The notes beneath the pieces were generated by a model, which was given only the letters and a program-made list of their open reading frames with translations, made no database searches and was not told the origin of the DNA. A program made the translations under genes and the position numbers. A stretch of DNA of 64,000 bases from a virus, in the IMG/VR virus record IMGVR_UViG_3300023493_000006, positions 10,434 through 74,433 of that record; one strand, written 5' to 3'. Shown here piece after piece: positions 1-49,070 of this stretch (positions are counted from its first letter, which is position 1; every line of letters begins with the position of its first letter).

Positions 1-3000
1 TACGCTTCCAGAAAATTCACCTTGGTTAAAATGAACACCTGTATTGTCAATATATCCAACCTGTGCACCACTTGCATCCAGAATGGAAAGCAATCCGTTC
101 CCGTTATTTGAACCGCCAAGTTTCAATGTGCCTCCATGTGCATAGGTGAATGAAAAATACAATTCTCCATTTTCCATGTACATGCCCTTTATTGCACCAT
201 TGTTTGTAAGCATATTGAACACTTGCTCATTTGTGTAAGCGTATTCAAGTTTTGGCATATAAATATAAGTATCATATTTTACGCTAGAGCCAACTGATGA
301 TGTCAAGATTCTCAAACTGTTTAAACTATCATTTGGTAAGCTAGATAAAGTTGTTGTTACTTGCAGTCTTTGCCATTCAGTTGTAGTTTTAGCATTTAAT
401 ATTGTTTTACTTCCAAGATACACATATACTTGTGTTGCAACACTAGTTTTTATCCAAAACGAAAAAGTATAATTTCCAGTAACTTTTATTGGCTTATAAT
501 TTTTCGTTCCAAATTGTGCTCCAGTTCCGTTTATTTTTATTGCATTTTTACCGCCATCTACATCCTGGACTCCATACTCATATGTATATGCACTCTGTGT
601 AGACCAATAATCTTTAACATTTTGTTCTGTTAGATAATAGCCTTTAATAATATTGTCCGATGTAATATCTTGGACTTGTTTTATAGCTTCTTCCTGTGCT
701 ATATCAGTAACGCTTTTATCTCCTAATGTAAACTGTGAAGCTGCTATTGTTACTGCACCAGTAGTTTTGTCAATAGCAAAAGTGGTCTTTCCATTGCTAT
801 CAACAACCTTAATACCTTTGGCTTGCACGTATTCTCCGTTTACATAGACATTTCCGTTTTCATCCAAGTAAATCCCCTGTGCCTTGCCGCCATTGGTGAG
901 TTTGTTGAAAATATCGGCTTGTGTCTGTCCAGAAACTGCGGTGCTGGCAGAAGAATCTGCAATTTCCTTTACTGTTTTGCCTTGTAAGGAAAAAGTTTTT
1001 GGAGCTAGGATGACGTTTCCTTTGCTGTCGATTTCTAAGGTTACGTTCTTGTCATCATTAATGACTTTTAGCCCACGACCATTAATTCTCTCACCGGCAA
1101 GCAATCCAGCCAGAATATATTTTGCATTGATATATACTTTTCCGTCCTCGATGTAGATTCCCTGTTCTGTCCCGCCTTTTGTGAGTTTATTGAACACTTC
1201 ATCCTGTCCAAGACTGGTATCGTAATTATCAATTGCATTTTTGATATCGTCTTTGTCTGCGTACTTGAAGTCAATCCAATCGGATGCAGTAAAGTCACCA
1301 TTAATACGATTTACAAAAGAAGTTTTGAGAGAAGCCTTTCCTTCACTATTGGTCGTTACCCACAAGTCACCTTCGTAATATGGTGGTGTTGGCTGAATCA
1401 TGTAAACAGATGATTTACCGTCTATCTTGTCCAACAATTCATTTGGTATGGACTGTGGTTGCCAGATGCCAGATTTGTATATCCACTGGGTGTTATCCGT
1501 GGTATTATGCCAAAGATCGCCTTCATGCTCTACCTTCTCAGATTCCCATACCAAAACAATTTCATTCCCGGATTCATCCAGAATCTTGTTTCCGTCAATA
1601 TCACACCATGGATATTCCTCTGTTTTTGTCCATTTTACAGATGGATCGTTTGGCTGATACCAAGTCTCAATTTTCCCGTCTATCTGCGTCTTTAAAGAAT
1701 TAAGTGAATCTTTAAAAACACCATTGATAAATAAGTCTAAAGAGCTATCATCCGTATACTTTGAAGCCTTTTCCCAATCATCCACTGAATAAGAGCCGCT
1801 TGCTCTGGCAACCTTACATCTCATCAAGTCACCATTAGAGCCTTGCGTCCATAAGTCTCCAATATCGTAAGGCGGCTCTGGATGAACGACGAATACTCTG
1901 CGCTTATGATCTGCTGTGTCCTGTGCTTTTTCTGCGGCGGCAAGTGCTAACGTGATATCGGTATCTTGTACCAATTGCCACTTCCATGTTGCCCCATCTT
2001 GCATAAAGCGGTATGCATATCCCTTGGATTTCCAGTAAAACAAGTCACCCTCATGTTTCTTTCGTTCTTCGTTTGTAGTCCATCCAGAAGCCGGGATATT
2101 CTGTAAGGTTGGTTCATAATCATAAAAAAAAGTCTCAATCTGTCCATCGATTTGAGACTGTAAATTATTGATATCAGTTGTGTATGTATTGCTGATAAAA
2201 TTATTAACTTCTGTTTCTGCTTTTTCCTTTGCAATCGCATTAACATCTTTTCCCTTGACTTGGACGGAATCCGCATTAATAACAACTCTTCCTGTTGTTA
2301 CATCAACCAGGAAAGTTGTGTTTCCATCTTTATCAATAGCCTTAATGGTTCCTGTATTAATCCAGTCAGCATTAACACCTGTAGCAGTAAGAATTCTGGC
2401 AATCACATCACCATCAACAGTCATACCACCATTCCAATGTTGTCCGCCATCTGTAGAAACAGCCCACGCTTCCGCAGTCATTTTCCATACAATATCAGAA
2501 TCGGATAACTGTGGCTTGTTGTGAAGATAATAAATATTGCTTCCGTCCGGCTGTTGCTCTACGGTAGTATATACGCCAGAGGATTCCGCTAAACGATTAG
2601 ACAACTCCTCTATAGCTTTTTCTCTGGCGGTACGTTCATCTCTTAAATTCTTTTTGTTTTCTGCCTGTACTTGTTGATTAAGGCTGTATTGTTTCTGCTT
2701 ATTCCTAGATACACTCTTAGCACTGCATTCAAGCTGCTCAAATGTGCCTGGATTCAAAGCAACAGAAGTTAGGAAGCTCTTGTACTGTTTCCCATTTCTG
2801 TCGGAAATCTCAATGGTGTCACCAGCTTCCCATGCAATATTGGTCAATGCGCCTGTGGTAAACGGTCTGAATTTCAGCCCCACGCACCTGTCTGCGATAA
2901 TTTGACAGATTTTCTCGCCAGAGCCTTCTTGAATTAGCTTATTATCACTAATTTCGATAACATAGCCAGATTCCCCCGACTGATATGTTTTCGCTTCATT

Positions 3001-3852
3001 TTGAGAAGAATTTTCAACGTATTCTGTAACTTTTACACCTGTTATTTCGACATCGTACAGCCATGGTGTGAATCCATTTGTATCTATGGCTGTAATACCC
3101 TTTTGCATAACAGTTATAATCTGTGCGCCTTTTGTGTCAAGAATGTCGTTCCCATCAGTATCTTTCCATGGCGTTTCAACCAAATTGTAAAATTTATCCG
3201 GTACTTCACGCTCATACCATCCAAGGCAAAGCCTTCCGTATTCGTCACTTTTCGCCCACTGACAGCCCATCTGTGCTATCCATGCAATTACCTGTCTGAA
3301 GGTAATACTGCTATCATCTGGTCGATTCTGAATTACGAAATCATCATTATCAAACCTTGTAGATTGTAATGTAACGCCGCAGACCTCGCAAGCATCCTGT
3401 ATGATCTGTAATCTAGTTGCCGGATAGGACAGCTTACTTTCTGAATAATCACGATCAAACAATCGCATGGAATCTTCGCAAGTTAGGCTAATAATAGCGG
3501 TGTTCTGATATGGCGCATCTGTTACTGTCATGGTACAGATACGGATTTTTTCAATGCCAGTAGATAATTCAAGCCCAATATAGCAAACAACTCTCGCTCC
3601 GTCCCAGATGTAGTCTGTGTATTTGCCAGAAAAGTTGTTGATCTGCAATGTCAGCTTATTTACGATAGCTGCGCCGATATCAAAAGAACCGCTTTGCGAT
3701 ACTGCATCCTCAAATTTAAAGCCATTAGACCATAAATCTTTGTCGGTAATGGATAATGTACTTCCGTCTGTGAAGGTAAAATCTGCATATTTCAGATAGT
3801 TACGGTTCCCACTATTCTGTTGTTCTTTAAATTCCGTTGATAAATTTCGCAT
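1..3852 (-). CDS. Phage tail tip / host-specificity protein (Tal-like). N-terminal prophage-endopeptidase-tail domain followed by W-rich tail-fibre repeats. The C-terminus runs off the window start
   Basis: Open minus-strand frame from the ATG at 3852-3850 (RBS GAGGTAAG) down to position 1. N-terminus reads MRNLSTEFKEQQNSGN...TDKDLWSNGFKFEDAVSQSGSFDIGAAIVN, typical of Tal N-domains. Later there are repeated IETWYQPNDPS...W and GDLW motifs and GIYIEDGKVYINA-type fibre repeats. Confidence 0.75.
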   Translation of the reverse strand, partial: MRNLSTEFKEQQNSGNRNYLKYADFTFTDGSTLSITDKDLWSNGFKFEDAVSQSGSFDIGAAIVNKLTLQINNFSGKYTDYIWDGARVVCYIGLELSTGIEKIRICTMTVTDAPYQNTAIISLTCEDSMRLFDRDYSESKLSYPATRLQIIQDACEVCGVTLQSTRFDNDDFVIQNRPDDSSITFRQVIAWIAQMGCQWAKSDEYGRLCLGWYEREVPDKFYNLVETPWKDTDGNDILDTKGAQIITVMQKGITAIDTNGFTPWLYDVEITGVKVTEYVENSSQNEAKTYQSGESGYVIEISDNKLIQEGSGEKICQIIADRCVGLKFRPFTTGALTNIAWEAGDTIEISDRNGKQYKSFLTSVALNPGTFEQLECSAKSVSRNKQKQYSLNQQVQAENKKNLRDERTAREKAIEELSNRLAESSGVYTTVEQQPDGSNIYYLHNKPQLSDSDIVWKMTAEAWAVSTDGGQHWNGGMTVDGDVIARILTATGVNADWINTGTIKAIDKDGNTTFLVDVTTGRVVINADSVQVKGKDVNAIAKEKAETEVNNFISNTYTTDINNLQSQIDGQIETFFYDYEPTLQNIPASGWTTNEERKKHEGDLFYWKSKGYAYRFMQDGATWKWQLVQDTDITLALAAAEKAQDTADHKRRVFVVHPEPPYDIGDLWTQGSNGDLMRCKVARASGSYSVDDWEKASKYTDDSSLDLFINGVFKDSLNSLKTQIDGKIETWYQPNDPSVKWTKTEEYPWCDIDGNKILDESGNEIVLVWESEKVEHEGDLWHNTTDNTQWIYKSGIWQPQSIPNELLDKIDGKSSVYMIQPTPPYYEGDLWVTTNSEGKASLKTSFVNRINGDFTASDWIDFKYADKDDIKNAIDNYDTSLGQDEVFNKLTKGGTEQGIYIEDGKVYINAKYILAGLLAGERINGRGLKVINDDKNVTLEIDSKGNVILAPKTFSLQGKTVKEIADSSASTAVSGQTQADIFNKLTNGGKAQGIYLDENGNVYVNGEYVQAKGIKVVDSNGKTTFAIDKTTGAVTIAASQFTLGDKSVTDIAQEEAIKQVQDITSDNIIKGYYLTEQNVKDYWSTQSAYTYEYGVQDVDGGKNAIKINGTGAQFGTKNYKPIKVTGNYTFSFWIKTSVATQVYVYLGSKTILNAKTTTEWQRLQVTTTLSSLPNDSLNSLRILTSSVGSSVKYDTYIYMPKLEYAYTNEQVFNMLTNNGAIKGMYMENGELYFSFTYAHGGTLKLGGSNNGNGLLSILDASGAQVGYIDNTGVHFNQGEFSGSV

Positions 3853-3855
3853 ATC

Positions 3856-4221
3856 TTACCTCTCGATAAAATCAAAACTAAGTCCTTCCATGCGCTCATT
3901 TCCTATCCACCAGCACTTAAAAGGGGATTCCCTGTCACCAACATAGAATGTTCTGGTTTCGTGCTTATTCGCAGACAGCAAGTCTGGATATGTGACCTGT
4001 ATGTACTCTGGATTTACTGCCTGTATAATTTTGCAAGCAGTGTCCCAATCTGGGCCATTCCAACCTACAGACAGCTTTCGTTTCTGTCCAACTCTGTTTT
4101 TGTGCATGGTCGTATCGTCTGTTCTGCCGGATTCTGATGCCGATATATCCTGTAATCCCCATGTAAAAGAAGAAGGACAGGGCATTGCTACCCCATCCAC
4201 TTTTAAAAATGCTTCTGCCAT
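3856..4221 (-). CDS. Short (121 aa) putative distal-tail-protein-like (Dit N-domain-like) protein immediately upstream of Tal
   Basis: ORF with its stop 3 nt before the Tal start. MPCPSSFTWGLQDISASESGRTDD resembles the PxP...GRxG start of Sipho_tail/Dit proteins, but the length is about half of a normal Dit. Confidence 0.35.
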   Translation of the reverse strand: MAEAFLKVDGVAMPCPSSFTWGLQDISASESGRTDDTTMHKNRVGQKRKLSVGWNGPDWDTACKIIQAVNPEYIQVTYPDLLSANKHETRTFYVGDRESPFKCWWIGNERMEGLSFDFIER

Positions 4222-4357
4222 ATGCTAACCCTCATGTATTTTTACACACGAAAAAAGCGCCTACCCCGAAATGTAAACGCTTTAAAAATTGCTTATTATG
4301 ATTTTATATTTTGACACTCCCCACAGCTAAAGCATGGGGGTTTTACGACACACTGGA

Positions 4358-4446
4358 TAAAAAGCACTGGATATTTTAATCCAATGCTCTACTTTATATT
4401 TTACACATATTGACGGTATCATTCAGTATATTATGGTATCATTTGT
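4358..4446. promoter_or_regulatory. Copy A of a conserved late-promoter-like repeat (GGTATCAT N12 GGTATCAT core) upstream of the Dit-like/Tal operon
   Basis: ~90% identical over ~85 bp to 29243-29335. Shares a 25-bp core with 17478-17507. Confidence 0.5.
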
Positions 4447-4553: not shown

Positions 4554-5450
4554 ATGAAAAAATTCAAAAAACTACTGGCAGTTTTTACCATAATGTTACT
4601 GATTGTCTGTATGGCAGTTCCAGTATCGGCGGCCGGTAAAATTAACAAGAAAAAAGTCACTTTGAAAGTCGGTCAAACATTACAATTAAAAGTAACTGGA
4701 ACAAAAGGAAAAGTAAAATGGACAAGTAGCAAAAAATCTGTTGCTACGGTATCTTCTAAAGGACGTGTAAAAGCGAAAAAGAAAGGTTCCGCTACAATTA
4801 CCGCAAAGATTGGTAAAAAGAAATATACCTGTAAAGTTACTGTGAAAAAGGCTTCTAATGGCAATGGCGGTTTTGGTGGAAATCCAAATGCTAACAGCAG
4901 TGGTAAAAAGAATGTTGTTAGTTATCATGCAGAATCTACGCCGTATGGAGCTGTGGCAATTCTGGAAAACCATTATGACCATGCAGTTGATCTGACCGTT
5001 GAATTTATCTATTATCTGAATGGAACAATGGTCGGAGTTGATAAGGATTATAATTTTGCGTTTGCAGCACATTCAAAATGTGCACTTCAAGGCTGGAATT
5101 CTGATAAAACGTGGGATTCTTTTAAAATCAATTTGAATATTAAGAAAGCATCTTCAAGTGTTATAACAAATAACTCGGGAATTCATTATTCAGCCAATTT
5201 TGGAAATAGAAATGTAGTGGTAAAAGTAGATAACAATGGACGGAAAAATGCGTTTACCACTATTGCAATTGTATTTTATAAAAATGGTAGGATAGTGGGG
5301 TATGATGATCGTAATGCTGATGTAAAAAATCCAGGATCGACAGCTTATCTCGAATTTGATTTTCCATTTGATAGGAATTTCGAGGATATCATACCAGATA
5401 AATTTGAAGTATATGTAAATGATTCGTATACATATAGCTGGATGAATTAA
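4554..5450 (+). CDS. Secreted protein with a signal peptide and a bacterial Ig-like (Big_2) domain, plus an unknown C-terminal domain
   Basis: MKKFKKLLAVFTIMLLIVCMAVPVSAAG signal peptide. VTLKVGQTLQLKVTGTKGKVKWTSSKKSVATVSSKGRVKAKKKGSATITA is a Big_2 signature. RBS GGGAGGAA. Confidence 0.7.
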   Translation: MKKFKKLLAVFTIMLLIVCMAVPVSAAGKINKKKVTLKVGQTLQLKVTGTKGKVKWTSSKKSVATVSSKGRVKAKKKGSATITAKIGKKKYTCKVTVKKASNGNGGFGGNPNANSSGKKNVVSYHAESTPYGAVAILENHYDHAVDLTVEFIYYLNGTMVGVDKDYNFAFAAHSKCALQGWNSDKTWDSFKINLNIKKASSSVITNNSGIHYSANFGNRNVVVKVDNNGRKNAFTTIAIVFYKNGRIVGYDDRNADVKNPGSTAYLEFDFPFDRNFEDIIPDKFEVYVNDSYTYSWMN

Positions 5451-5457
5451 TATAAAA

Positions 5458-5479
5458 GGCTAGGGAGAAATCCCTAGCC
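5458..5479. terminator. Bidirectional hairpin terminator between convergent genes
   Basis: GGCTAGGGAGAAATCCCTAGCC perfect stem-loop between the + gene ending at 5450 and the - gene ending at 5489. Confidence 0.6.
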
Positions 5480-5488
5480 CTAATCTTA

Positions 5489-8768: not shown

Positions 8769-8840
8769 TCTGCGTCAGATTTATCTGACATAATAATATC
8801 GTTAGATATTATTTAAATATAATTCTTTCTCTTTTTCTTA

Positions 8841-8940
8841 ATCTAAATCTATATCTAAATCTATATCTAAATCTATATCTAAATCTATATCTAAATCTAA
8901 ACCTTAATCTGAGTGCGTCTACTATGCGTCTTTTGTGCGT
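8841..8940. repeat. Iteron array: ATCTAAATCTAT x4.5 tandem 12-mers plus a GAGTGCGTCT..TGCGTCTTTTGTGCGT tail. Homologous to intragenic repeats at 48541-48660
   Basis: Perfect tandem 12-mers read directly. Same ATCTAAATCT / ATCTGAGTGCGTCT / TGCGTCTTTTGT motifs occur inside the replisome organizer gene. Confidence 0.8.
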
Positions 8941-15127: not shown

Positions 15128-15176
15128 TTTATTTATCCCTCCTTTTTTTTACAAAAAAATAAAGGGCAGACAAGAC

Positions 15177-15521
15177 TTATTCATCCTGCCTGCCCTTTTC
15201 ATGGTTAAGTTCAAAGTTTGCCTGCATGAGTTGCAAGCTTGCTAAAAGTGCGTTTCTCTGTTTTTTCTTTTCTTCTTCGGAAAGTATGCCTTCCTGTTTA
15301 CGCTTTTCTTCCTCTGCTGATTCCAGTAAAGGTTTTTTCAAATACTCTGCTTTAGATTTTTTCCCCATTAAAGCATTCGCAACAGCCGTGAATGTGGCTG
15401 ATGTTTCATAAATGCCAGCTTGCCAGAGTTCGGAATCTTTCCTCTTTTGACGTATCTTTTCAGCTTCGAGATAAGGTTTTAATTCAGCTGGCGTAGAATC
15501 CATAAATTCTTCTTTAGACAC
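15177..15521 (-). CDS. Tail assembly chaperone, frameshift-extension (T) segment. Probably expressed as a G-T fusion by -1 frameshifting
   Basis: This frame is open upstream, back into the 3' end of the G gene in its -1 frame. See slippery site 15575-15595. Confidence 0.5.
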   Translation of the reverse strand: MSKEEFMDSTPAELKPYLEAEKIRQKRKDSELWQAGIYETSATFTAVANALMGKKSKAEYLKKPLLESAEEEKRKQEGILSEEEKKKQRNALLASLQLMQANFELNHEKGRQDE

Positions 15522-16984: not shown

Positions 16985-17386
16985 TCAAAGTAATTTTCCT
17001 GTATATATCCGGCTGTATCGGCTCACAAGCTTTTTGATTCCACTGTCACCGAAAAACATAGGTTCCGGTCCGTATGTGCGGCGGAATCCCATGCTCACCA
17101 TAGCTTTGTGGCTTATCTTATCCAATTCATACACTCTGGTTAATGCTTTACTCCCAGATGTGAAGCAATTTACTTGAAATGATGGCATTGTTGCGCATTC
17201 ATCTCCTTCAAGGTCACCTCTTGTAATTGGATTCCCAAGCATATAAAGCTGTGCATATGCTTTTTTACCGGAAGCATTTGTTTCACTGCCATCCATGGAA
17301 TAATTGTCTGCGCCAGTAATCTTAGAAACAGCCGCTCCCCATCTTGAAAAAACTTCTAATACAGGAGATTCTATTGTGTCTGGCAT
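16985..17386 (-). CDS. Hypothetical structural protein (neck / tail terminator region), 133 aa
   Basis: Start MPDTIESPV with RBS GTGAGGTGA. The ORF track gives a longer N-terminal extension. Confidence 0.45.
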   Translation of the reverse strand: MPDTIESPVLEVFSRWGAAVSKITGADNYSMDGSETNASGKKAYAQLYMLGNPITRGDLEGDECATMPSFQVNCFTSGSKALTRVYELDKISHKAMVSMGFRRTYGPEPMFFGDSGIKKLVSRYSRIYTGKLL

Positions 17387-17477
17387 ATCTGTCACCTCAC
17401 AATAAAAAAATGCACTCACCTTTATAGTGAACGCATTGCATTTTATACTACAATTTAACACTGTAATGATAACATAA

Positions 17478-17507
17478 TTGTTTAGTATCATTCAGTATAT
17501 TATGGTA
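17478..17507. promoter_or_regulatory. Copy C (core only) of the late-promoter-like repeat: TAGTATCATTCAGTATATTATGGTATC
   Basis: 25/25 bp identical to copy A's core. Lies ~90-120 bp upstream of the 16985..17386 start. Confidence 0.45.
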
Positions 17508-17513
17508 TCTTCT

Positions 17514-18032
17514 TTAAGAAGAGAACGCTTCTTTAGCAATTTTACGAACGGCAATAATAATGGCTTGTTCTGCGTGATACATAGGCATGTACGCTCTATT
17601 TCCATATGAATGGCGTGTTTCTCCACTTCTTTCGTCCGTATACCACCATCCATAAGGTGAAAACGCATGGGTTTGTCCGGGGTATGTACCTACTCCGTAT
17701 TCAGAACCAGATGGCAGAGGGTAATTGTTTGAACCATATGTGATACCAGCTGAAAATTCAATGAATAACACTTTATCACCAGACAGCCTAACAGATGCAC
17801 CTGTAATGTCACCGTTCTTATTATAGATTATCTCGGTGTAGTATGAACCTTTCTCTTCGTCCGGGATGGATTCCATTGTGGTCTGAATTACTTGTAATCC
17901 CTCTTCGCACAATCTCTTAACAAAAAGCTCGTTCTTTCTTTGTAAATCTTTCTGGTATGCCTTTAATTCATTAATTGCATTACGAATTGATTTCTGCGAT
18001 AAGGTACACTTTATCGTCTTACCCATCTTCAT
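17514..18032 (-). CDS. Hypothetical structural protein (possibly HK97-gp10-like tail completion)
   Basis: Position only. Start taken at MKMGKTIK to avoid overlap with the upstream gene. Confidence 0.35.
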   Translation of the reverse strand: MKMGKTIKCTLSQKSIRNAINELKAYQKDLQRKNELFVKRLCEEGLQVIQTTMESIPDEEKGSYYTEIIYNKNGDITGASVRLSGDKVLFIEFSAGITYGSNNYPLPSGSEYGVGTYPGQTHAFSPYGWWYTDERSGETRHSYGNRAYMPMYHAEQAIIIAVRKIAKEAFSS

Positions 18033-18411
18033 TCCCTCTCTTGGAAATTCCATATCTGGCAATATTGCCTTTTTGAGTGTCTAAAATCTTCTTTAGTGTG
18101 TAGTCTGGCAATACTGTAGGTTCGCCATCTTTGTTCAAAATAAGGCTTCCGTCCTCGCTTATTTGTGGAATTCTATCTATCCAAAATATGTCCGCTTCCT
18201 GTGGATGAAAATTTCGATTAAAGCTTGTAATGTACCTATCATAATCTGGCACTATTCCGGCTGCAATTTCTTCTGGTGTTCCGGCTGTAGATGATACAGA
18301 AAAAGAGTATAGAACTGGTTTCTCATAAACTTTAATACGGTCTAATCCTTGCGTTTTTTCAGTAATTCGAGACCAATATACTTTTTGCTTTTGACGGACT
18401 AATCCTCTCAT
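18019..18411 (-). CDS. Hypothetical structural protein (130 aa)
   Basis: ORF. Position between the BppU-like gene and neck genes. Confidence 0.4.
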   Translation of the reverse strand: MRGLVRQKQKVYWSRITEKTQGLDRIKVYEKPVLYSFSVSSTAGTPEEIAAGIVPDYDRYITSFNRNFHPQEADIFWIDRIPQISEDGSLILNKDGEPTVLPDYTLKKILDTQKGNIARYGISKRGNEDG

Positions 18412-21392: not shown

Positions 21393-21468
21393 GGTTTCTC
21401 ACCATCCTTTCTACGAAAAAAGCCCCTGCCGCATTTACTTGCGACAAGGACTTAATTCATTTATTGCT

Positions 21469-22541: not shown

Positions 22542-22605
22542 TCAAAATAAGAGGTGAGCCGCAACCCACCTCTTAGAATTTAGTCAACCTCTAAGGGTGA
22601 GTTAC

Positions 22606-24289: not shown

Positions 24290-24529
24290 TTATGAATACA
24301 AAGAAAAGCCCCGACAATACATCGGGGCGACTTTCATAATTTTCTTCTTTAATTTTCTGTTTATGCGGTCTACTGTTCTTGTGCTGTAGCCCATGATTTC
24401 TGAAGCTTCTGCAAGTGTTTTTTCTTCGTAAACACGCAATCTGAATAACTCTTTTTCTCTGGAATCAAATCCAGCTTCACGCAAATAGAAGATTCTTTCA
24501 TCTTCTGAAAAGTCTTTATAATCATCCAT
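24290..24529 (-). CDS. Small sigma-70 region-4-like HTH protein
   Basis: LAEASEIMGYSTRTVDRINRKLKKKI is a sigma-r4 / LuxR-type HTH. RBS AGGGAGGA. Confidence 0.55.
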   Translation of the reverse strand: MDDYKDFSEDERIFYLREAGFDSREKELFRLRVYEEKTLAEASEIMGYSTRTVDRINRKLKKKIMKVAPMYCRGFSLYS

Positions 24530-24979: not shown

Positions 24980-25300
24980 TTAGAATCCGATAAATGGAAA
25001 AACACCATGATTTACATAAATTTCAGTTTCGGAAGTCCAATTTCTGTTTACAGAAGATTCGGAATGTGATCCTTGGAATTCAGCTCCCTGTTTCACCAGA
25101 AAGAAAAGAGCCAAATCAAATATGCAATCATAGCAGTTTTCCATATCGGAATTTATTTTTTCATCACTGTAAGATGAAGGATAATTCCTTTTTTTCTTAA
25201 ATGAACGAATAGCCCTCTCTGCCGAAAGAGGAATCATCCTCGCAGTTTCTGCATCATCTTCAAGATAATTTGTCAAATCCTCTATAAGCTGTTCGTCCAT
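24980..25300 (-). CDS. Head-tail connector (gp6-like adaptor)
   Basis: ~106 aa immediately downstream of the capsid gene. Typical size and position. MDEQLIEDLTNYLEDDAETARMIPLSAERAIRSF. Confidence 0.5.
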   Translation of the reverse strand: MDEQLIEDLTNYLEDDAETARMIPLSAERAIRSFKKKRNYPSSYSDEKINSDMENCYDCIFDLALFFLVKQGAEFQGSHSESSVNRNWTSETEIYVNHGVFPFIGF

Positions 25301-27570: not shown

Positions 27571-27735
27571 TGAAATCTCCTTTCTTCCAGTCCAATACGC
27601 TTTTTCAACACGGTTCGCTCCGCACATGGTCTGTACCCGATTTACGCTCACGGGCTGTTGCAATTTATTTGATTTTGGGTATTAAAAAAGAAGCCTTAGA
27701 TTTCTCTAAAACTCCTTAAATAATCGAAATTTGGT

Positions 27736-40592: not shown

Positions 40593-41341
40593 GTTATCAC
40601 CTCACTTTAACACGTTAATTTACAAATAAAAAAGAGAATGTCACCGGGTAAAGCTTATTCCCGGAAGGCTTCCGGGTGTTCGGGTACATTCTCTAAAACT
40701 CAAATTAAAAAAATATTCTGTTTTCTTTGTTGCTGATACCTTAGCACAGTTTTTAATATCTTGTCAAATTTAATTTTGCATAAAATAAAACCATCTATTT
40801 TGTCAATAATTAATAAATAATAACTGGGGTATTATATTATAATCTTTATTTATATTTATATCTTATATATTATTATACGGTACTGTATAGCATATCTTTT
40901 AATAAACTCCAGCTTTAGGAATCTAGGAAGGGCAGAGAATAGTTATATAATTATATATAATATAAGGGCGGCTACATTTTCATAGATTTGCATAATAAAA
41001 GCCAGACCTTCCAGGAGTTTCTATCCGGCGTGATCTGGCTTGTTATGCGTGTTATTTAATTAACGATTCTGTGTACTTTCAGCCTCTGCCCTTCCTGAGT
41101 TCCGTCAGCTCTCGTTATCTGATAGCCTAAAGAAGTTTTAGAAAAATGTCAAGCGGTATTTTAAAAATATTTTTCTTGACAATTTGCTAAAAACTGTGTT
41201 ATTAAAATATTAACAGGCTCGGCGGCGGTCTGTACTCTGTCCATAGCCGCCACAAATAAGTATTTTAAAGCCCTAGGAATTAATCCCGGGGCTTTTTCTT
41301 TGGCTTGTATTATCTATTATTGTGTATTTCGTACAAGTCTA

Positions 41342-41626
41342 TTATAGTGTATTTTTTCTTTTATACTCCATAATATCACTAGGCTGACAATTCAACAATT
41401 TGCATAGATTGCATATAACTTCACAAGTTACATTTTCATTTTTAGTCAACTTTGCAACGGTATTAGAATGTATTCCGTTATTTTTCAGCCACTGTTTATT
41501 CAGCTCTTTTTTATCCAATATTTGCCATAGTTTGGAAAAGTCTATATATCCATTAGCTCCATAATTAGCCATTTCTCGAACCTCCTTTATATAATACATG
41601 ATAATAGTTTTTTCTATTTTTGTCAA
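41342..41626 (-). CDS. XRE/Cro-type HTH regulator
   Basis: NGIHSNTVAKLTKNENVTCEVICNLCKLLNCQPSDIMEY HTH_26-like. Confidence 0.55.
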   Translation of the reverse strand: MTKIEKTIIMYYIKEVREMANYGANGYIDFSKLWQILDKKELNKQWLKNNGIHSNTVAKLTKNENVTCEVICNLCKLLNCQPSDIMEYKRKNTL

Positions 41627-41933
41627 TGTCTATTATTGTGTACTGCATGCACAATTTAGGCTGCTTGAAAACATCTATTTTCGTGTATATTTTTTATTGA
41701 CTATTCGTCTATTATCGTGTATTATATAACCATCAACAGAGAACACAAGAAACAAACAACCGGAACCGCCCGAACCACTCAACACAATGAGGACATAGGA
41801 ACCGGCACCGATTAATTGAAAAATTCTAGTTCCTGGACAAAATAAAAAAAGCCCGGTCGACTTCCAAACCAAACCGGGCACCAAACTAAAAAGAAAGGCA
41901 ACCCCATTATAACAGGGGCGAAGGTAAAAAACA

Positions 41934-48165: not shown

Positions 48166-49070
48166 TTATCCACCTCGCTTACCCTGTTTTGGATTTTCTC
48201 CATGTAGCTTTGCGGTTTACTTCCGGCTTTATCAAGATAGTTCCCTTCAAATACCTTCGCAAAGTTACCGGGCTTTAAGAACCAATCGAAAGTTATCATC
48301 CAGCCTTCTTTGTTCTGGCCTTGTAAGAAGCTGCTATGGCGAATGTTTTCAATAGCTTCTAAGATATCGTCCATATGGTTCTGACGGATTCTGGCTTTCA
48401 CTGCTTGTTCTCGTTTTGATGTCATTCTTTTTACAGGATTAATACCAAATTCTTCCAGAGTATTCCATTCATCAATGATTCGTTGGACGTCAGTCTGACG
48501 AATAGTATCTTTAGATACTATTAAATCATTTATATCTTTTTCTTTATCTTTATCTAATTCTATATCTAAATCTAAATCTAATTCTAAATCTTTATCTAAA
48601 CCTATATCTTTATCTGAGTGCGTCTTTTGTTCGTCTATTTTGCGTCTTTTCTGCGTCTGCCTGTTTGAACGCTCTATTAGTTTGGTATCATCAATAGAAT
48701 TTCCATTTGTCAGTGAGTAACTTCCGTTATCTTTCAATAGCAGTTTCTTTTTTTCGTCAGTGTATGAAGTTTCTATATATCTGTCTCTAGACAGGGTGTT
48801 GTGCATTCTCCAATGCTTAATAACAATCACGCCATCATCAAATAAGATAACAAATCTCTTGGCAATCAGAAGCTTCAAATCATCATCATTTGCACCTATT
48901 ATTTTTTCAATCCTCTTTGGGTTTCCAATAAATCCATCATCATCAGCTCGCATATTTAAATGAAAATAAAGGCATTGTGTTGATAATGGCATATCAAGAA
49001 AAGCGTCTGTATCAACAATTTTCATGGTAAACATTCTTTTATTTGCCAATTCTAAAATTCCTTTCTCCAA
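48156..49070 (-). CDS. Phage replisome organizer with internal DKDLELDLDLDIELDK iteron-encoding repeats
   Basis: N-terminal LSTQCLYFHLNMRADDDGFIGNPKRIEK (phage_rep_org_N-like). Repeat DNA at 48541-48660. Confidence 0.65.
   Translation of the reverse strand: MEKGILELANKRMFTMKIVDTDAFLDMPLSTQCLYFHLNMRADDDGFIGNPKRIEKIIGANDDDLKLLIAKRFVILFDDGVIVIKHWRMHNTLSRDRYIETSYTDEKKKLLLKDNGSYSLTNGNSIDDTKLIERSNRQTQKRRKIDEQKTHSDKDIGLDKDLELDLDLDIELDKDKEKDINDLIVSKDTIRQTDVQRIIDEWNTLEEFGINPVKRMTSKREQAVKARIRQNHMDDILEAIENIRHSSFLQGQNKEGWMITFDWFLKPGNFAKVFEGNYLDKAGSKPQSYMEKIQNRVSEVDNWV
48541..48660. repeat. Intragenic iteron region (ATCTAA/ATCTTT hexamer-based repeats ending ATCTGAGTGCGTCT..TGCGTCTTTT). Candidate phage origin
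   Basis: Direct repeats read in the sequence. Homologous to 8841-8940. Confidence 0.6.

Follow-up and report, generated by a model that had tools for sequence, protein, structure and literature searches.

The 64,000-nucleotide stretch of viral DNA analysed here (the window) contains a repeat family with three copies, all on one strand, which precede genes encoded on the minus strand. A repeat-family search of the window aligned copy 1 (4357-4442) with copy 2 (29245-29330) at 92% identity over 86 nt without gaps, in agreement with an earlier note on this DNA, which had described an ~85-bp element as ~90% identical at two places. The region of copy 3 (17426-17511) is 65% identical overall and shares with copies 1 and 2 a 28-nt core, which recurs at 17484-17511. 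This third core had also been recognized in the earlier note, although the coordinates given there (17478-17507) are a few bases off.

The core has the bipartite form GGTATCAT-N12-GGTATCAT, which is exact at 4415-4442 and 29303-29330 and carries two mismatches at 17484-17511 (AGTATCAT..GGTATCTT). With up to three mismatches allowed, the motif yields five matches in the window against 0.5 expected, and none of 100 shuffles contained five; the single 8-mer with up to one mismatch (67 matches versus 51) is little enriched alone. Matches at 25230 and 29323-29350 were attributed to chance or overlap and were rejected as further copies. Read on the minus strand, copies 1 and 2 have the form ATGATACC-N12-ATGATACC, and copy 3 carries variant words. 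Each copy then shows the same order of elements: the repeats, 11-12 nt, a candidate -10 hexamer, a hairpin with a U-run, a ribosome-binding site (RBS) and the first gene of a structural block. No -35 element precedes the -10 hexamers of these cassettes. Approximately 55 of the 85 bp are accounted for by the -10 hexamer and the terminator hairpin, downstream of the repeats; the earlier note did not read the coding strand and therefore missed both. A scan of the window for sites that combine a repeat, a second repeat upstream and a -10-like hexamer at 11-12 nt returned only these three, with no further cassette upstream of terL or elsewhere in the window. Rfam 15, searched over the window, brought only four tRNAs to the gathering score.

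Copy 2 lies at the junction between ltr, which encodes a 140-amino-acid late transcriptional regulator of the DUF1492 (LtrB) type (29327..29749, minus strand), and the portal gene. The distal repeat ATGATACC (29323..29330) contains the TGA stop codon of ltr and the proximal repeat ATGATACC occupies 29303..29310, followed after 11 nt by a -10-like TAAAAT (29286..29291) that is preceded by TGTG and has no -35 match. The leader hairpin (stem of at least 12 bp, 29249-29278) and its U-run (together 29242..29278) resemble an intrinsic terminator, and are placed between ltr and the first late gene, directly before the RBS and start of the portal gene. This gene (27736..29220; SPP1 type, Pfam SPP1_portal 8e-72) probably starts at GTG 29220, judging by comparison with the related locus L120, with ATG 29208 as the alternative. 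The ltr gene itself is situated between terL (29753-31447) and portal.

Copy 3 precedes the tail-tube block on the same strand. Its distal repeat AAGATACC (17504..17511) begins 2 nt past the stop of ORF 17514-18062, and its proximal repeat ATGATACT (17484..17491) is followed after 12 nt by a candidate extended -10 element, TG-T-TATCAT (17466..17474; hexamer 17466-17471). At this position, 31 related loci carry TATGAT or TATCAT. The leader hairpin with a T7 run (17402..17437) is unrelated in sequence to the hairpin of copies 1 and 2, and the RBS GAGGTGA and ATG 17386 follow within 16 nt. The first gene (16985..17386) encodes a 133-amino-acid protein for which annotation searches found no family; a holin-like gene and the genes for the major tail protein and the tape measure protein come after it. 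The repeats of copies 2 and 3 directly adjoin the end of a co-directional gene, and these copies leave no room for another promoter between the cassette and the RBS.

Copy 1, again on the minus strand, comprises the distal repeat ATGATACC (4435..4442), the proximal repeat ATGATACC (4415..4422), a -10-like TAAAAT 11 nt past the latter (4398..4403) and a first leader hairpin with a U-run (4355..4390). A second terminator-like hairpin with a T6 run (4247..4283; -14.1 kcal/mol) is common to relatives of one gene-context class (class D) and represents the resident leader terminator of this locus. The first gene (3856..4221) encodes a 121-amino-acid DUF6711-like protein (phrog_1194), and is followed by a gene for a tail protein of more than 1284 amino acids (1-3852) that extends beyond the edge of the window. 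Upstream of copy 1 there is no co-directional gene, and the preceding operon is already ended by a separate terminator at 5456-5481. The distances from the core or cassette end to the start codon are 25 nt (GTG 29220) or 37 nt (ATG 29208) for copy 2, 98 nt for copy 3 (17484 to ATG 17386) and 136 nt for copy 1 (4357 to ATG 4221), all within the 10-230 bp upstream of the first late gene noted earlier.

At the locus of copy 1, the body differs in most relatives. An alignment with copy 2 and a class-D relative identifies the first hairpin of copy 1 as part of a duplicated copy-2 cassette, and this duplication explains the identity of copies 1 and 2 over 85 bp. The sequences thus indicate that a portal cassette of ~88 nt was recently duplicated or gene-converted into the distal-tail locus, which bears out the earlier suggestion that repeats of this length serve as recombination substrates. 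Such an insertion or conversion, together with the variable flanks upstream of copy 1 among relatives, is also what a small mobile or selfish (MITE-like) repeat might produce, or a packaging or recombination site unrelated to transcription. We regard both origins as highly improbable. Dozens of relatives have orthologues of the three sites, neither terminal inverted repeats nor target duplications were seen at the copies, all copies have the same orientation relative to genes, and only three occur in 64 kb. Moreover, a search of 185,579 bacterial and archaeal genomes found no instance of the cassette pattern. The earlier note had named a repeated mobile element as one outcome that would overturn its reading; the features of such an element were not seen, and the copies are orthologous.

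The product of ltr passes the Pfam DUF1492 cut-off (26.2 bits versus 21.5) and matches phrog_36 (transcriptional regulator; 1.5e-19). Its AF2 model (pLDDT 84) consists of a long N-terminal two-helix hairpin and a C-terminal helix-turn-helix (HTH) resembling sigma region 4. Foldseek searches with this model aligned sigma-4 domains at an rmsd of 1.5-1.9 A over 55-58 residues, and a PDB profile search returned sigma region 4 alone (SigF region 4 at E 1.5e-3). Neither the model nor Foldseek revealed a domain like sigma region 2. The protein had been called ‘ArpU-like’ in the earlier note; it belongs to DUF1492/LtrB and is not an ArpU protein in the strict sense. Membership in the Q family was considered and rejected, since Pfam Phage_antitermQ (PF06530) scores 19.2 bits against a cut-off of 26 with a match that overlaps the HTH only, and neither the PDB profile search nor the 50 best Foldseek matches listed included a Q chain. 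Homologues are carried by phages of Ruminococcus, Oscillospirales, Christensenellales, Erysipelothrix and Streptococcus, and none was found in a set of one genome per species of bacteria and archaea. Some sources label these homologues ‘specialized sigma subunit’.

A motif search of the window and its relatives, which the earlier note had proposed, produced the three sites described above and cassettes at orthologous places in at least 98 IMG/VR loci of the same phage group, in four context classes. The lineage of the window uses ATGATACC at all of its sites, and a sister lineage uses its own word, AATCATAT, at more than one site; a scan for this sister word gave mostly chance matches of an AT-rich pattern, and only matches grouped by context were used. 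In relatives with an Ltr that is 26-53% identical, the repeat word has usually changed and the order of repeats, -10, terminator and RBS is kept. Lineages at 31-53% identity have other words (AATCATAT, TAGCACT, ATGTCATA and TTTCACA) and still show a gap of 11-13 nt to the -10 hexamer. An ltr stop codon within or abutting the repeats is also found in the lineages L120, L123-125, L129, L130 and L131 and in most of the annotated phages examined. Sixteen annotated phages from Clostridia, Erysipelothrix and Streptococcus were scanned automatically for a terminator in the spacer between ltr and the next gene, and 11 of them had one; inspection by eye added three. The architecture is missing from two of these 16 (L167 and L178) and from the metagenomic loci L127 and L128. 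A simple code from recognition helix to word is not supported: in one phage (L163), an Ltr that is 41% identical and has a different predicted recognition helix is accompanied by the same TGATACC word, and therefore the mapping of protein to word is not simple.

Traits by which Ltr systems can be recognized are found here, namely DUF1492 with a sigma-4-like HTH, repeats at the ltr stop, and a lineage-specific word (with L163 as the exception). We therefore consider it likely that each copy is a late-promoter cassette under the control of the phage's own Ltr-family regulator (DUF1492, 29327-29749). The earlier note had proposed activator-bound direct repeats before late operons, read by a sigma-r4-like protein, and this proposal gains support from the DUF1492 match, the fold, the ltr stop within the repeat and the lineage-specific words. 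Of the two candidate regulators named at that time, the product of 29327..29749 is retained, and no evidence supports the product of 24290..24529 as the cognate factor.

As we envisage it from the sequence, the two ATGATACC words would bind two Ltr protomers through their sigma-region-4-like HTH domains. The words are 20 bp apart from start to start and would therefore lie on the same helix face, and the proximal word ends 11-12 bp upstream of the -10 hexamer, which places it at the position of the missing -35 element. Next to it would stand the -10 hexamer, often with a TGn extension. These -10 assignments are candidates based on spacing and conservation; in copies 1 and 2, TGTG abuts TAAAAT and there is no canonical TGn. 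By replacing the -35 contact, Ltr would recruit or stabilise host sigma-A RNA polymerase. Transcription would start ~7 nt past the hexamer, and the transcript would run through the leader hairpin and U-run into the first gene. In this way, Ltr may switch on three blocks, one from portal to head, one from tail tube to tape measure and one for the distal tail.

Another reader of the repeats could be imagined, for example the 79-amino-acid protein that has sigma region 4 only (24290-24529) and passes the Pfam Sigma70_r4 threshold with 29.8 bits, or Ltr itself could be a replacement sigma factor. The proximal repeat is roughly at the -35 place, and the sigma-subunit labels on Ltr homologues would fit the latter version. 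However, the repeats abut the ltr stop across lineages and the word usually differs between Ltr lineages. Furthermore, Ltr lacks a domain like sigma region 2 and devotes its N-terminal half to the two-helix hairpin, the -10 hexamers resemble sigma-A elements, and a sigma factor would not need two words 20 bp apart. These observations make both versions very unlikely.

Folding of the leader hairpins on the minus strand yields -15.9 kcal/mol for the first hairpin of copy 1 (z -4.9; plus strand -9.9), -16.7 kcal/mol for copy 2 (z -6.2; plus strand -4.6) and -13.2 kcal/mol for copy 3 (plus strand -8.9), and z ranges from -3.4 to -6.2 over the four leader hairpins. Runs of T5-T7 directly follow the hairpins, as is characteristic of intrinsic terminators. 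For the copy 2-type hairpin, all 151 of 151 cells pair across four Ltr lineages, double changes occur in five of nine pairs, and none of 500 shuffles reaches the observed score; this covariation signal is visible only across lineages whose Ltr proteins are 42-53% identical. Many G-U pairs of the leader hairpin fit the RNA of the coding strand only. Pairing across four lineages and the G-U pairs on the coding strand indicate that the leader hairpin is under selection. Among 12 close relatives, the copy 3 hairpin is paired in 98.6% of cells, with one GC/GU/AU pair; covariation in this set, with a single compensatory pair, does not reach significance (the observed value is attained by 82 of 500 shuffles). 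An Rfam search of the leader hairpins from 14 Ltr loci gave nothing relevant at E values up to 1.

In all three copies, the terminator is located shortly downstream of the putative late promoter and upstream of the late genes. The same is true of phi13 relative to its mapped start site, where our reading of the sequence places a hairpin and U-run at about +26 to +58, ahead of the first late gene. This promoter-then-terminator order occurs in more than 20 Ltr lineages, phi13 and 80alpha included, with hairpins of unrelated sequence and no room for a promoter past the hairpin. Most likely, the leader terminator blocks transcription that arrives from upstream before Ltr accumulates. Late transcripts would then get past it either because it leaks or because Ltr alters the polymerase. 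A pure activator model leaves the downstream placement of the terminator, in nearly every lineage, without explanation.

Ltr might act in the manner of Q, besides or instead of activating initiation, a reading that we put forward only tentatively. Loaded at the repeats onto a polymerase newly initiated at the adjacent promoter, it would allow this enzyme to resist the leader terminator as well as further terminators within the late operons, and transcription from upstream would be stopped at the leader terminator. Consistent with such a role, the order recurs across lineages despite the unrelated hairpins, and is also present at copy 1, which has no co-directional gene upstream and comes after another terminator (5456-5481). 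The regulator gene is directly upstream of its own promoter, as for Q. In published reporters, there is no read-through from the upstream Pcad without Ltr and expression occurs with Ltr, and a 59-nt repeat block can be transferred in front of unrelated DNA (PMC3753634). In addition, more than 155 bp separate the RinA repeats from the mapped 5' end downstream, a distance that the authors found hard to explain (PMC3152322), and 80alpha carries a -10-like TAAAAT 10 nt past the repeats and upstream of the terminator. The late region of the window also holds another six conserved hairpins that resemble terminators, and an RBS directly follows at least three (21420-21453, 22548-22575 and 15161-15198).

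A second -10-like hexamer, 13-14 nt past the first, could serve as a sigma-dependent pause element, and is present in copy 3 (17452-17460), class D, L120, L123, L129, L130 and 80alpha. This sequence is AT-rich, and chance matches to the hexamer are therefore likely. Copies 1 and 2 have no such element, which speaks against a Q-like role, and because the pause element is absent from both 85-bp copies it was not taken as evidence. Other observations also weigh against antitermination. Ltr falls outside the Q family in sequence and fold searches, and a phi13 reporter that stops at +50 and lacks the U-run still needs Ltr, and therefore Ltr activates initiation in that phage (PMC13123087). Processive antitermination would make three promoters per genome less necessary, and terminators past major structural genes are common in phages and may simply leak.

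It is similarly possible, if again doubtful, that the hairpins are ordinary operon-end terminators and 5' stabilisers that happen to overlap the next promoter in a compact genome and are passed by leakage, the order having no regulatory meaning. Their stems are AU-rich and of moderate stability (-13 to -17 kcal/mol), and the activation of initiation by Ltr in phi13 agrees with this reading. At copies 2 and 3 the co-directional gene ends at the repeats, such that the hairpin is the first terminator of that gene, which also counts in favour of ordinary termination. However, nearly all lineages examined keep the order, even though insulation would be just as good with a terminator ahead of the repeats. 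Furthermore, copy 1 has two leader terminators and no co-directional gene upstream, and the U-runs, which a stabiliser would not need, are always kept.

The design of the cassettes matches that of published late promoters of the Ltr/RinA/ArpU type in Gram-positive phages. The Ltr superfamily of late-promoter regulators includes RinA, ArpU, LtrA, LtrB (DUF1492) and LtrC (Ferrer 2011, PMC3152322; Quiles-Puchalt 2013, PMC3753634). In these systems, mutagenesis and gel shifts demonstrated that repeats immediately distal to ltr are needed for activation and are bound by Ltr (PMC3753634). A DUF1492 member activates terS expression, with a terminator between ltr and the first late gene (PMC3753634, PMC3152322), and in phi13 a mapped start site (TSS23) and a validated TATA box lie just past the repeats (phi13 Ltr 2026, PMC13123087). 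The window shares with them a small regulator whose C-terminus resembles sigma-r4; short direct repeats at or just past the ltr stop, whose regulator-specific word determines specificity; a -10 (‘TATA’) box downstream of the repeats; and an intrinsic terminator between ltr and the first late gene.

There are also differences. Here ltr lies between terL and portal, whereas in the described examples it is the last early gene, upstream of terS, and the genome carries three Ltr cassettes, unlike 80alpha, for which a single late promoter was reported. We treat the position upstream of terS and the single late promoter as traits of the described examples, not as a definition of the family. The described systems have 2-4 repeats at 10-18 bp, whereas the window has two 8-mers 20 bp apart, the proximal one only 11-12 bp from the -10. 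Finally, the terminator is downstream of the predicted start here and, from its sequence, in phi13, whereas the published Ltr papers placed it, or assumed it to be, upstream of the promoter.

Middle promoters of T4 provide a second comparison. They have a MotA box centred near -30, ~12 bp from the sigma-70 -10 element, and no -35, and the co-factor AsiA remodels sigma region 4; there is a single box and no known leader terminator. Like these promoters, the cassettes have a phage-specific word in place of the -35 at a similar distance from a host-type -10. However, MotA is not known to be related to Ltr, and T4 middle promoters are not known to have a second word 20 bp upstream. The Alt-dependent late promoter of TP901-1, as cited in PMC3152322 and PMC13123087, has repeats at -76 to -32. 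These citing accounts describe imperfect direct repeats upstream of the late start that are bound by a phage activator, which resembles the arrangement in the window; the activator is from another family, the four repeats lie further upstream, and a single late promoter is described.

The arrangement of lambdoid Q, PR' and tR' (e.g. PMC9388147) is similar in that the gene for the regulator immediately precedes the late promoter, the DNA site of the regulator is part of the promoter region, and a terminator shortly past the start has essential late genes behind it. It differs in that Ltr shows no kinship to Q by sequence or fold, is needed for initiation in phi13, and is not consistently accompanied by a pause element. 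RinA, ArpU, LtrA-C and DUF1492 proteins could perhaps also be the Gram-positive functional counterpart of lambdoid Q, such that only a polymerase started at the cassette reads through the terminator 10-60 nt downstream, but we consider this wider proposal rather less than even in its chances. If it held, the order of repeats, -10, terminator and RBS would be the hallmark of the mechanism, and the terminator would stop all transcripts that enter from the early region.

Ltr regulators govern packaging, lysis and gene transfer in many Firmicutes phages, including staphylococcal phages that mobilise pathogenicity islands. The window falls within a group of phage contigs, ~80 kb in size, that recur in human gut metagenomes, and offers a compact and clean Ltr system in which both the replacement of the -35 by a sigma-4-like protein and Ltr-dependent passage of the terminator are testable with short synthetic templates. 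If the Q-like reading is true, a large share of Gram-positive phages would control their late genes through antitermination by a family unrelated to Q, and there would be an explanation for the action of RinA from a site more than 155 bp ahead of the mapped terS 5' end. If it is false, an annotation rule would still result, by which late promoters of uncultured Firmicutes phages can be found from the ltr stop and the repeat word.

A repeat search of the window aligned copy 1 of the element (4357-4442) with copy 2 (29245-29330) at 92% identity over 86 nt, and identified 17426-17511 as a third member of this repeat family that has only the core in common with the other two. The direct repeat GGTATCAT-N12-GGTATCAT occurs without mismatch at 4415-4442 and at 29303-29330, and with two mismatches at 17484-17511 (copy 3). 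With up to three mismatches allowed, this bipartite motif was matched five times against 0.5 expected, a count reached by no shuffle, and all copies of the element in the window lie on the same strand. These results bear out the claim of an earlier note that a direct-repeat element resides upstream of the late gene blocks. The motif search proposed there found three full sites in the window and at least 119 loci with the exact motif in IMG/VR.

On the coding strand, all copies share the order ATGATACC-N12-ATGATACC, a gap of 11-12 nt, a -10-like hexamer, a hairpin followed by T5-T7, and a ribosome binding site (RBS) with start codon. The hexamer is TAAAAT in copies 1 and 2 and TG-T-TATCAT in copy 3, and no -35 element was found in any of the three. 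Within the 64-kb window, the full arrangement (hereafter the cassette, with 'word' for its repeat unit) occurs at these three sites only. The largest direct-repeat family of the window (D1) consists of hexanucleotide tandem arrays, TCTAAA x12.5 at 8836-8910 and TATATC x14 at 48531-48615. A gene-poor stretch at 40742-41201 and 41587-41729 contains inverted repeats nested in one another, with arms of 26-27 nt and one 21-nt pair at 95% complementarity, and may function in regulation or as an origin of replication.

The minus strand carries nearly all genes of the window. From high to low coordinates, terL (31447-29753) is followed by a gene for a 140-amino-acid regulator (ltr, 29749-29327), copy 2, the portal, scaffold and major head genes, and other genes that include a 79-amino-acid sigma-r4 ORF. 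A 182-amino-acid ORF ending at 17514 directly precedes copy 3, after which come a 133-amino-acid ORF, a holin-like gene and the major tail and tape measure protein genes. Further genes, a terminator (5481-5456) and a plus-strand Ig-domain gene (4554-5450) precede copy 1, which is followed by a DUF6711-like gene and a gene for a tail protein of more than 1284 amino acids. The Ig-domain gene, encoding 298 amino acids with a bacterial Ig-like (Big_2) domain, is the sole sizeable plus-strand gene of the late region. Because the sequence upstream of the copy-1 repeats varies among relatives, the copy-1 promoter marks a point of variable, moron-like insertion. Upstream of the packaging genes, a cluster at 35209-36223 (-) comprises four tRNA genes (Ser-tga, Met-cat twice, Gln-ttg).

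The 140-amino-acid protein scores above the Pfam threshold for DUF1492. This family, also named LtrB, is one branch of the Ltr superfamily of late transcriptional regulators, which further includes RinA, ArpU, LtrA and LtrC (PMC3753634). The protein belongs to phrog_36, and an exhaustive search found 3486 cluster representatives at E up to 1e-3. One and the same C-terminal stretch gives weak hits, below the Pfam thresholds, for Sigma70_r4 and the Q family PF06530. An AlphaFold model (77 sequences, pLDDT 84) predicts long helices at 10-36 and 52-86 and then a three-helix domain. In Foldseek, 55-58 residues of this domain superimpose on region 4 from several sigma factors at 1.5-1.9 Å, and the best 50 matches include no Q protein. 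Sigma region 4 was also the sole match in a profile search of PDB sequences. The TGA stop of ltr falls within the distal repeat of copy 2. The 79-amino-acid ORF (24290-24529, -), which the earlier note had offered as another possible cognate regulator, comprises little beyond a domain of the sigma-70 region 4 type (29.8 bits in Pfam) and lies amid structural genes, with a GC-rich hairpin and T-run within its 3' end; nothing connects it to the repeats.

The element is best read as an Ltr-dependent late promoter, as suggested by its anatomy, by family membership and by published experiments on homologues, and on these grounds the proposal of activator-site repeats before late operons appears essentially right. 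Two Ltr protomers would occupy the two words on one helix face, the proximal protomer would replace the contact of sigma-A polymerase with a -35 element, at a promoter of the extended -10 type, and three uses of the cassette would switch on three structural gene blocks. In phi13, the repeats are closely followed by a TATA box validated by mutation and by a mapped start (TSS23), and Ltr is required by a reporter that ends at +50 (PMC13123087). RinA depends on sequences more than 155 bp upstream of the position to which the 5' end was mapped, a distance that the authors of that study found hard to reconcile with direct contact (PMC3152322).

At least 98 of the IMG/VR loci belong to the phage group of the window, mostly as contigs of ~80 kb from a single human gut data set. 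Among the matches listed, 42 loci lie after ltr and before portal (class A, equivalent to copy 2), 31 correspond to copy 3 (class B), 17 (class D) and six (class C, equivalent to copy 1) occupy the copy-1 locus, and two form class B2; classes D and B2 have no copy in the window. In class D, the repeats lead through TG-y-TATrAT directly to a resident terminator (4254-4283 in the window). In class C, including the window, a class-A body of ~88 nt containing the -10 and hairpin is placed between the repeats and the resident leader (alignment A6), and the 85-bp identity of copies 1 and 2 therefore reflects a duplicated cassette. Functionally, the conserved core consists of the repeats, their spacing, the -10 and a terminator, whatever its sequence. 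Flanked by both leader terminators of copy 1, a hairpin lacking a U-run (CCCCC/GGGG, 4316-4341, -) forms part of the inserted segment and is retained in the relatives of class C; TTTTAC follows it on the plus strand. Four unrelated viral contigs of IMG/VR (L012, L021, L027, L087) carry three or four TGATACC-like words with a 10-bp period. In L012 and L087 these directly adjoin a canonical TTGACA-N17-TATAAT promoter, and the word is used there in another promoter geometry.

A simple terminator scan detected the hairpins of copies 2 and 3 and a second hairpin downstream of copy 1. Since the stems contain G-U pairs, predicted folding is stronger for minus- than plus-strand RNA (-15.9 versus -9.9 kcal/mol for the first hairpin of copy 1, -16.7 versus -4.6 for copy 2, -13.2 versus -8.9 for copy 3); the second hairpin of copy 1, folded on the minus strand only, gives -14.1 kcal/mol. 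The T-run lies just 8-25 nt from the RBS in copies 2 and 3, leaving no room for a further promoter. Among close relatives the copy-3 hairpin is 98.6% paired, with one compensatory pair (not significant). Across four lineages, portal-upstream hairpins (17 distinct sequences, nine common pairs) pair in 151/151 cells, and five of the nine pairs changed on both sides. Their covariation score of 0.564 (0.369 for shuffles) was reached by 0/500 shuffles, shifted registers pair at just 30-54%, and their numerous G-U pairs are compatible with coding-strand RNA only. Rfam holds no family for the leader hairpins. Six further terminator-like hairpins with T-runs, conserved in relatives, lie on the minus strand of the late region (27688-27717, 24308-24328, 22548-22575, 21420-21453, 15161-15198 and 5456-5481). 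At least three have an RBS directly after them, one has a 16-bp stem just before the tape measure gene, and late transcription must pass all six.

The architecture extends to distant lineages (Ltr identities are to the Ltr of the window). In a sister lineage (L120, L140-160; 51%), GCAATCATAT GGAATCATAT follows the stop, with TATAAT and a terminator (AAGCACTGAGG / CCTTGGTGCTT plus T6) before portal. L130 and L131 (53%) carry a TAGCACT-type word twice, 10 bp apart, then 11 nt, TATAAT and a terminator, also before portal. In L123-125 (43-45%), ATGTCATA occurs twice, overlapping the stop, followed by 12 nt, TG-A-TATATT and a terminator; L129 (31%) has three TTTCACA-type words, 12 nt, TG-A-TATGAT and a terminator before terS. 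Metagenomic loci L127 and L128 lack the architecture. The sister lineage has a second cassette bearing its own word (TATGCAATCATATGGAATCATAT, 13 nt including TG-A, TATACT, terminator, RBS), so the word is common to several sites of that lineage and unlike that of the window, as would be expected of a cognate binding site. In the sister locus L120 (1-1195), an RtcB RNA ligase gene adjoins terL on its upstream side. A second -10-like hexamer, often TG-preceded (TGTTAAATT, CTGTAAAAT, TGCAAAAAT), lies 13-14 nt past the first, roughly at +2 to +8 in the predicted transcript, in the window at 17452-17460 (-), in class D relatives, in L120, L123, L129 and L130, and in 80alpha (L162, about 1767-1772); it is absent from both 85-bp copies.

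Among 16 annotated phages of Clostridia, Erysipelothrix, Streptococcus and Terrisporobacter (Ltr identity 26-41%), the spacer between ltr and the next gene contains a terminator in 11 by automatic scan and in three more by eye, and lacks one in two. A leader hairpin before an HNH endonuclease gene (L163, L164, L166, L169-L172, L174, L176, L177, about 50-115 nt past the ltr stop; also L002, L011), GAGCCTyrTGGGAGCAATCCyryGGGGCTTTTCTTATGCCC and then AAGGAGGTG, is conserved in sequence and shape in Streptococcus, Erysipelothrix, Terrisporobacter and several Clostridia phages. Rfam gave no match for this hairpin, whose role may go beyond termination. In phi13 (L179), a hairpin (4092-4116) and TTATTTTTAT precede the first late gene, at about +26 to +58 relative to the mapped start. 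The 80alpha repeats lead after 10 nt to TAAAAT and, ~90 nt beyond, to a terminator, with the published 5' end behind it.

The terminator retains its position downstream of the start (predicted in the window) in almost all lineages, and every late transcript must pass through it. Two more observations bear on its role: copy 1 has two leader hairpins even though it has no co-directional gene upstream and the preceding operon ends in a terminator of its own, and the late region holds the six further terminator-like hairpins described above. On one reading, the leader hairpin would insulate against early read-through, and late transcripts would leak through it. Alternatively, Ltr might also render the polymerase it helped start terminator-resistant, in the manner of lambdoid Q. 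This is attractive in that it agrees with the published findings that transcription from an upstream Pcad promoter does not read through unless Ltr is present, which points to a terminator between ltr and terS, and that the repeat block still works when placed before unrelated downstream DNA (PMC3753634). However, Ltr is no relative of Q, it is required for initiation in phi13, and a putative pause element is lacking in both 85-bp copies. A literature search found nothing linking Ltr-superfamily proteins to antitermination, and we regard such a role as rather unlikely.

Relative to the known Ltr system, the variant features of the promoter system described here are an LtrB/DUF1492 regulator whose gene separates terL from portal, the presence of three cassettes in each genome, and 20-bp repeat spacing with a very short gap to the -10. 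The point worth pursuing is the promoter-then-terminator order, which is conserved across the Ltr superfamily.
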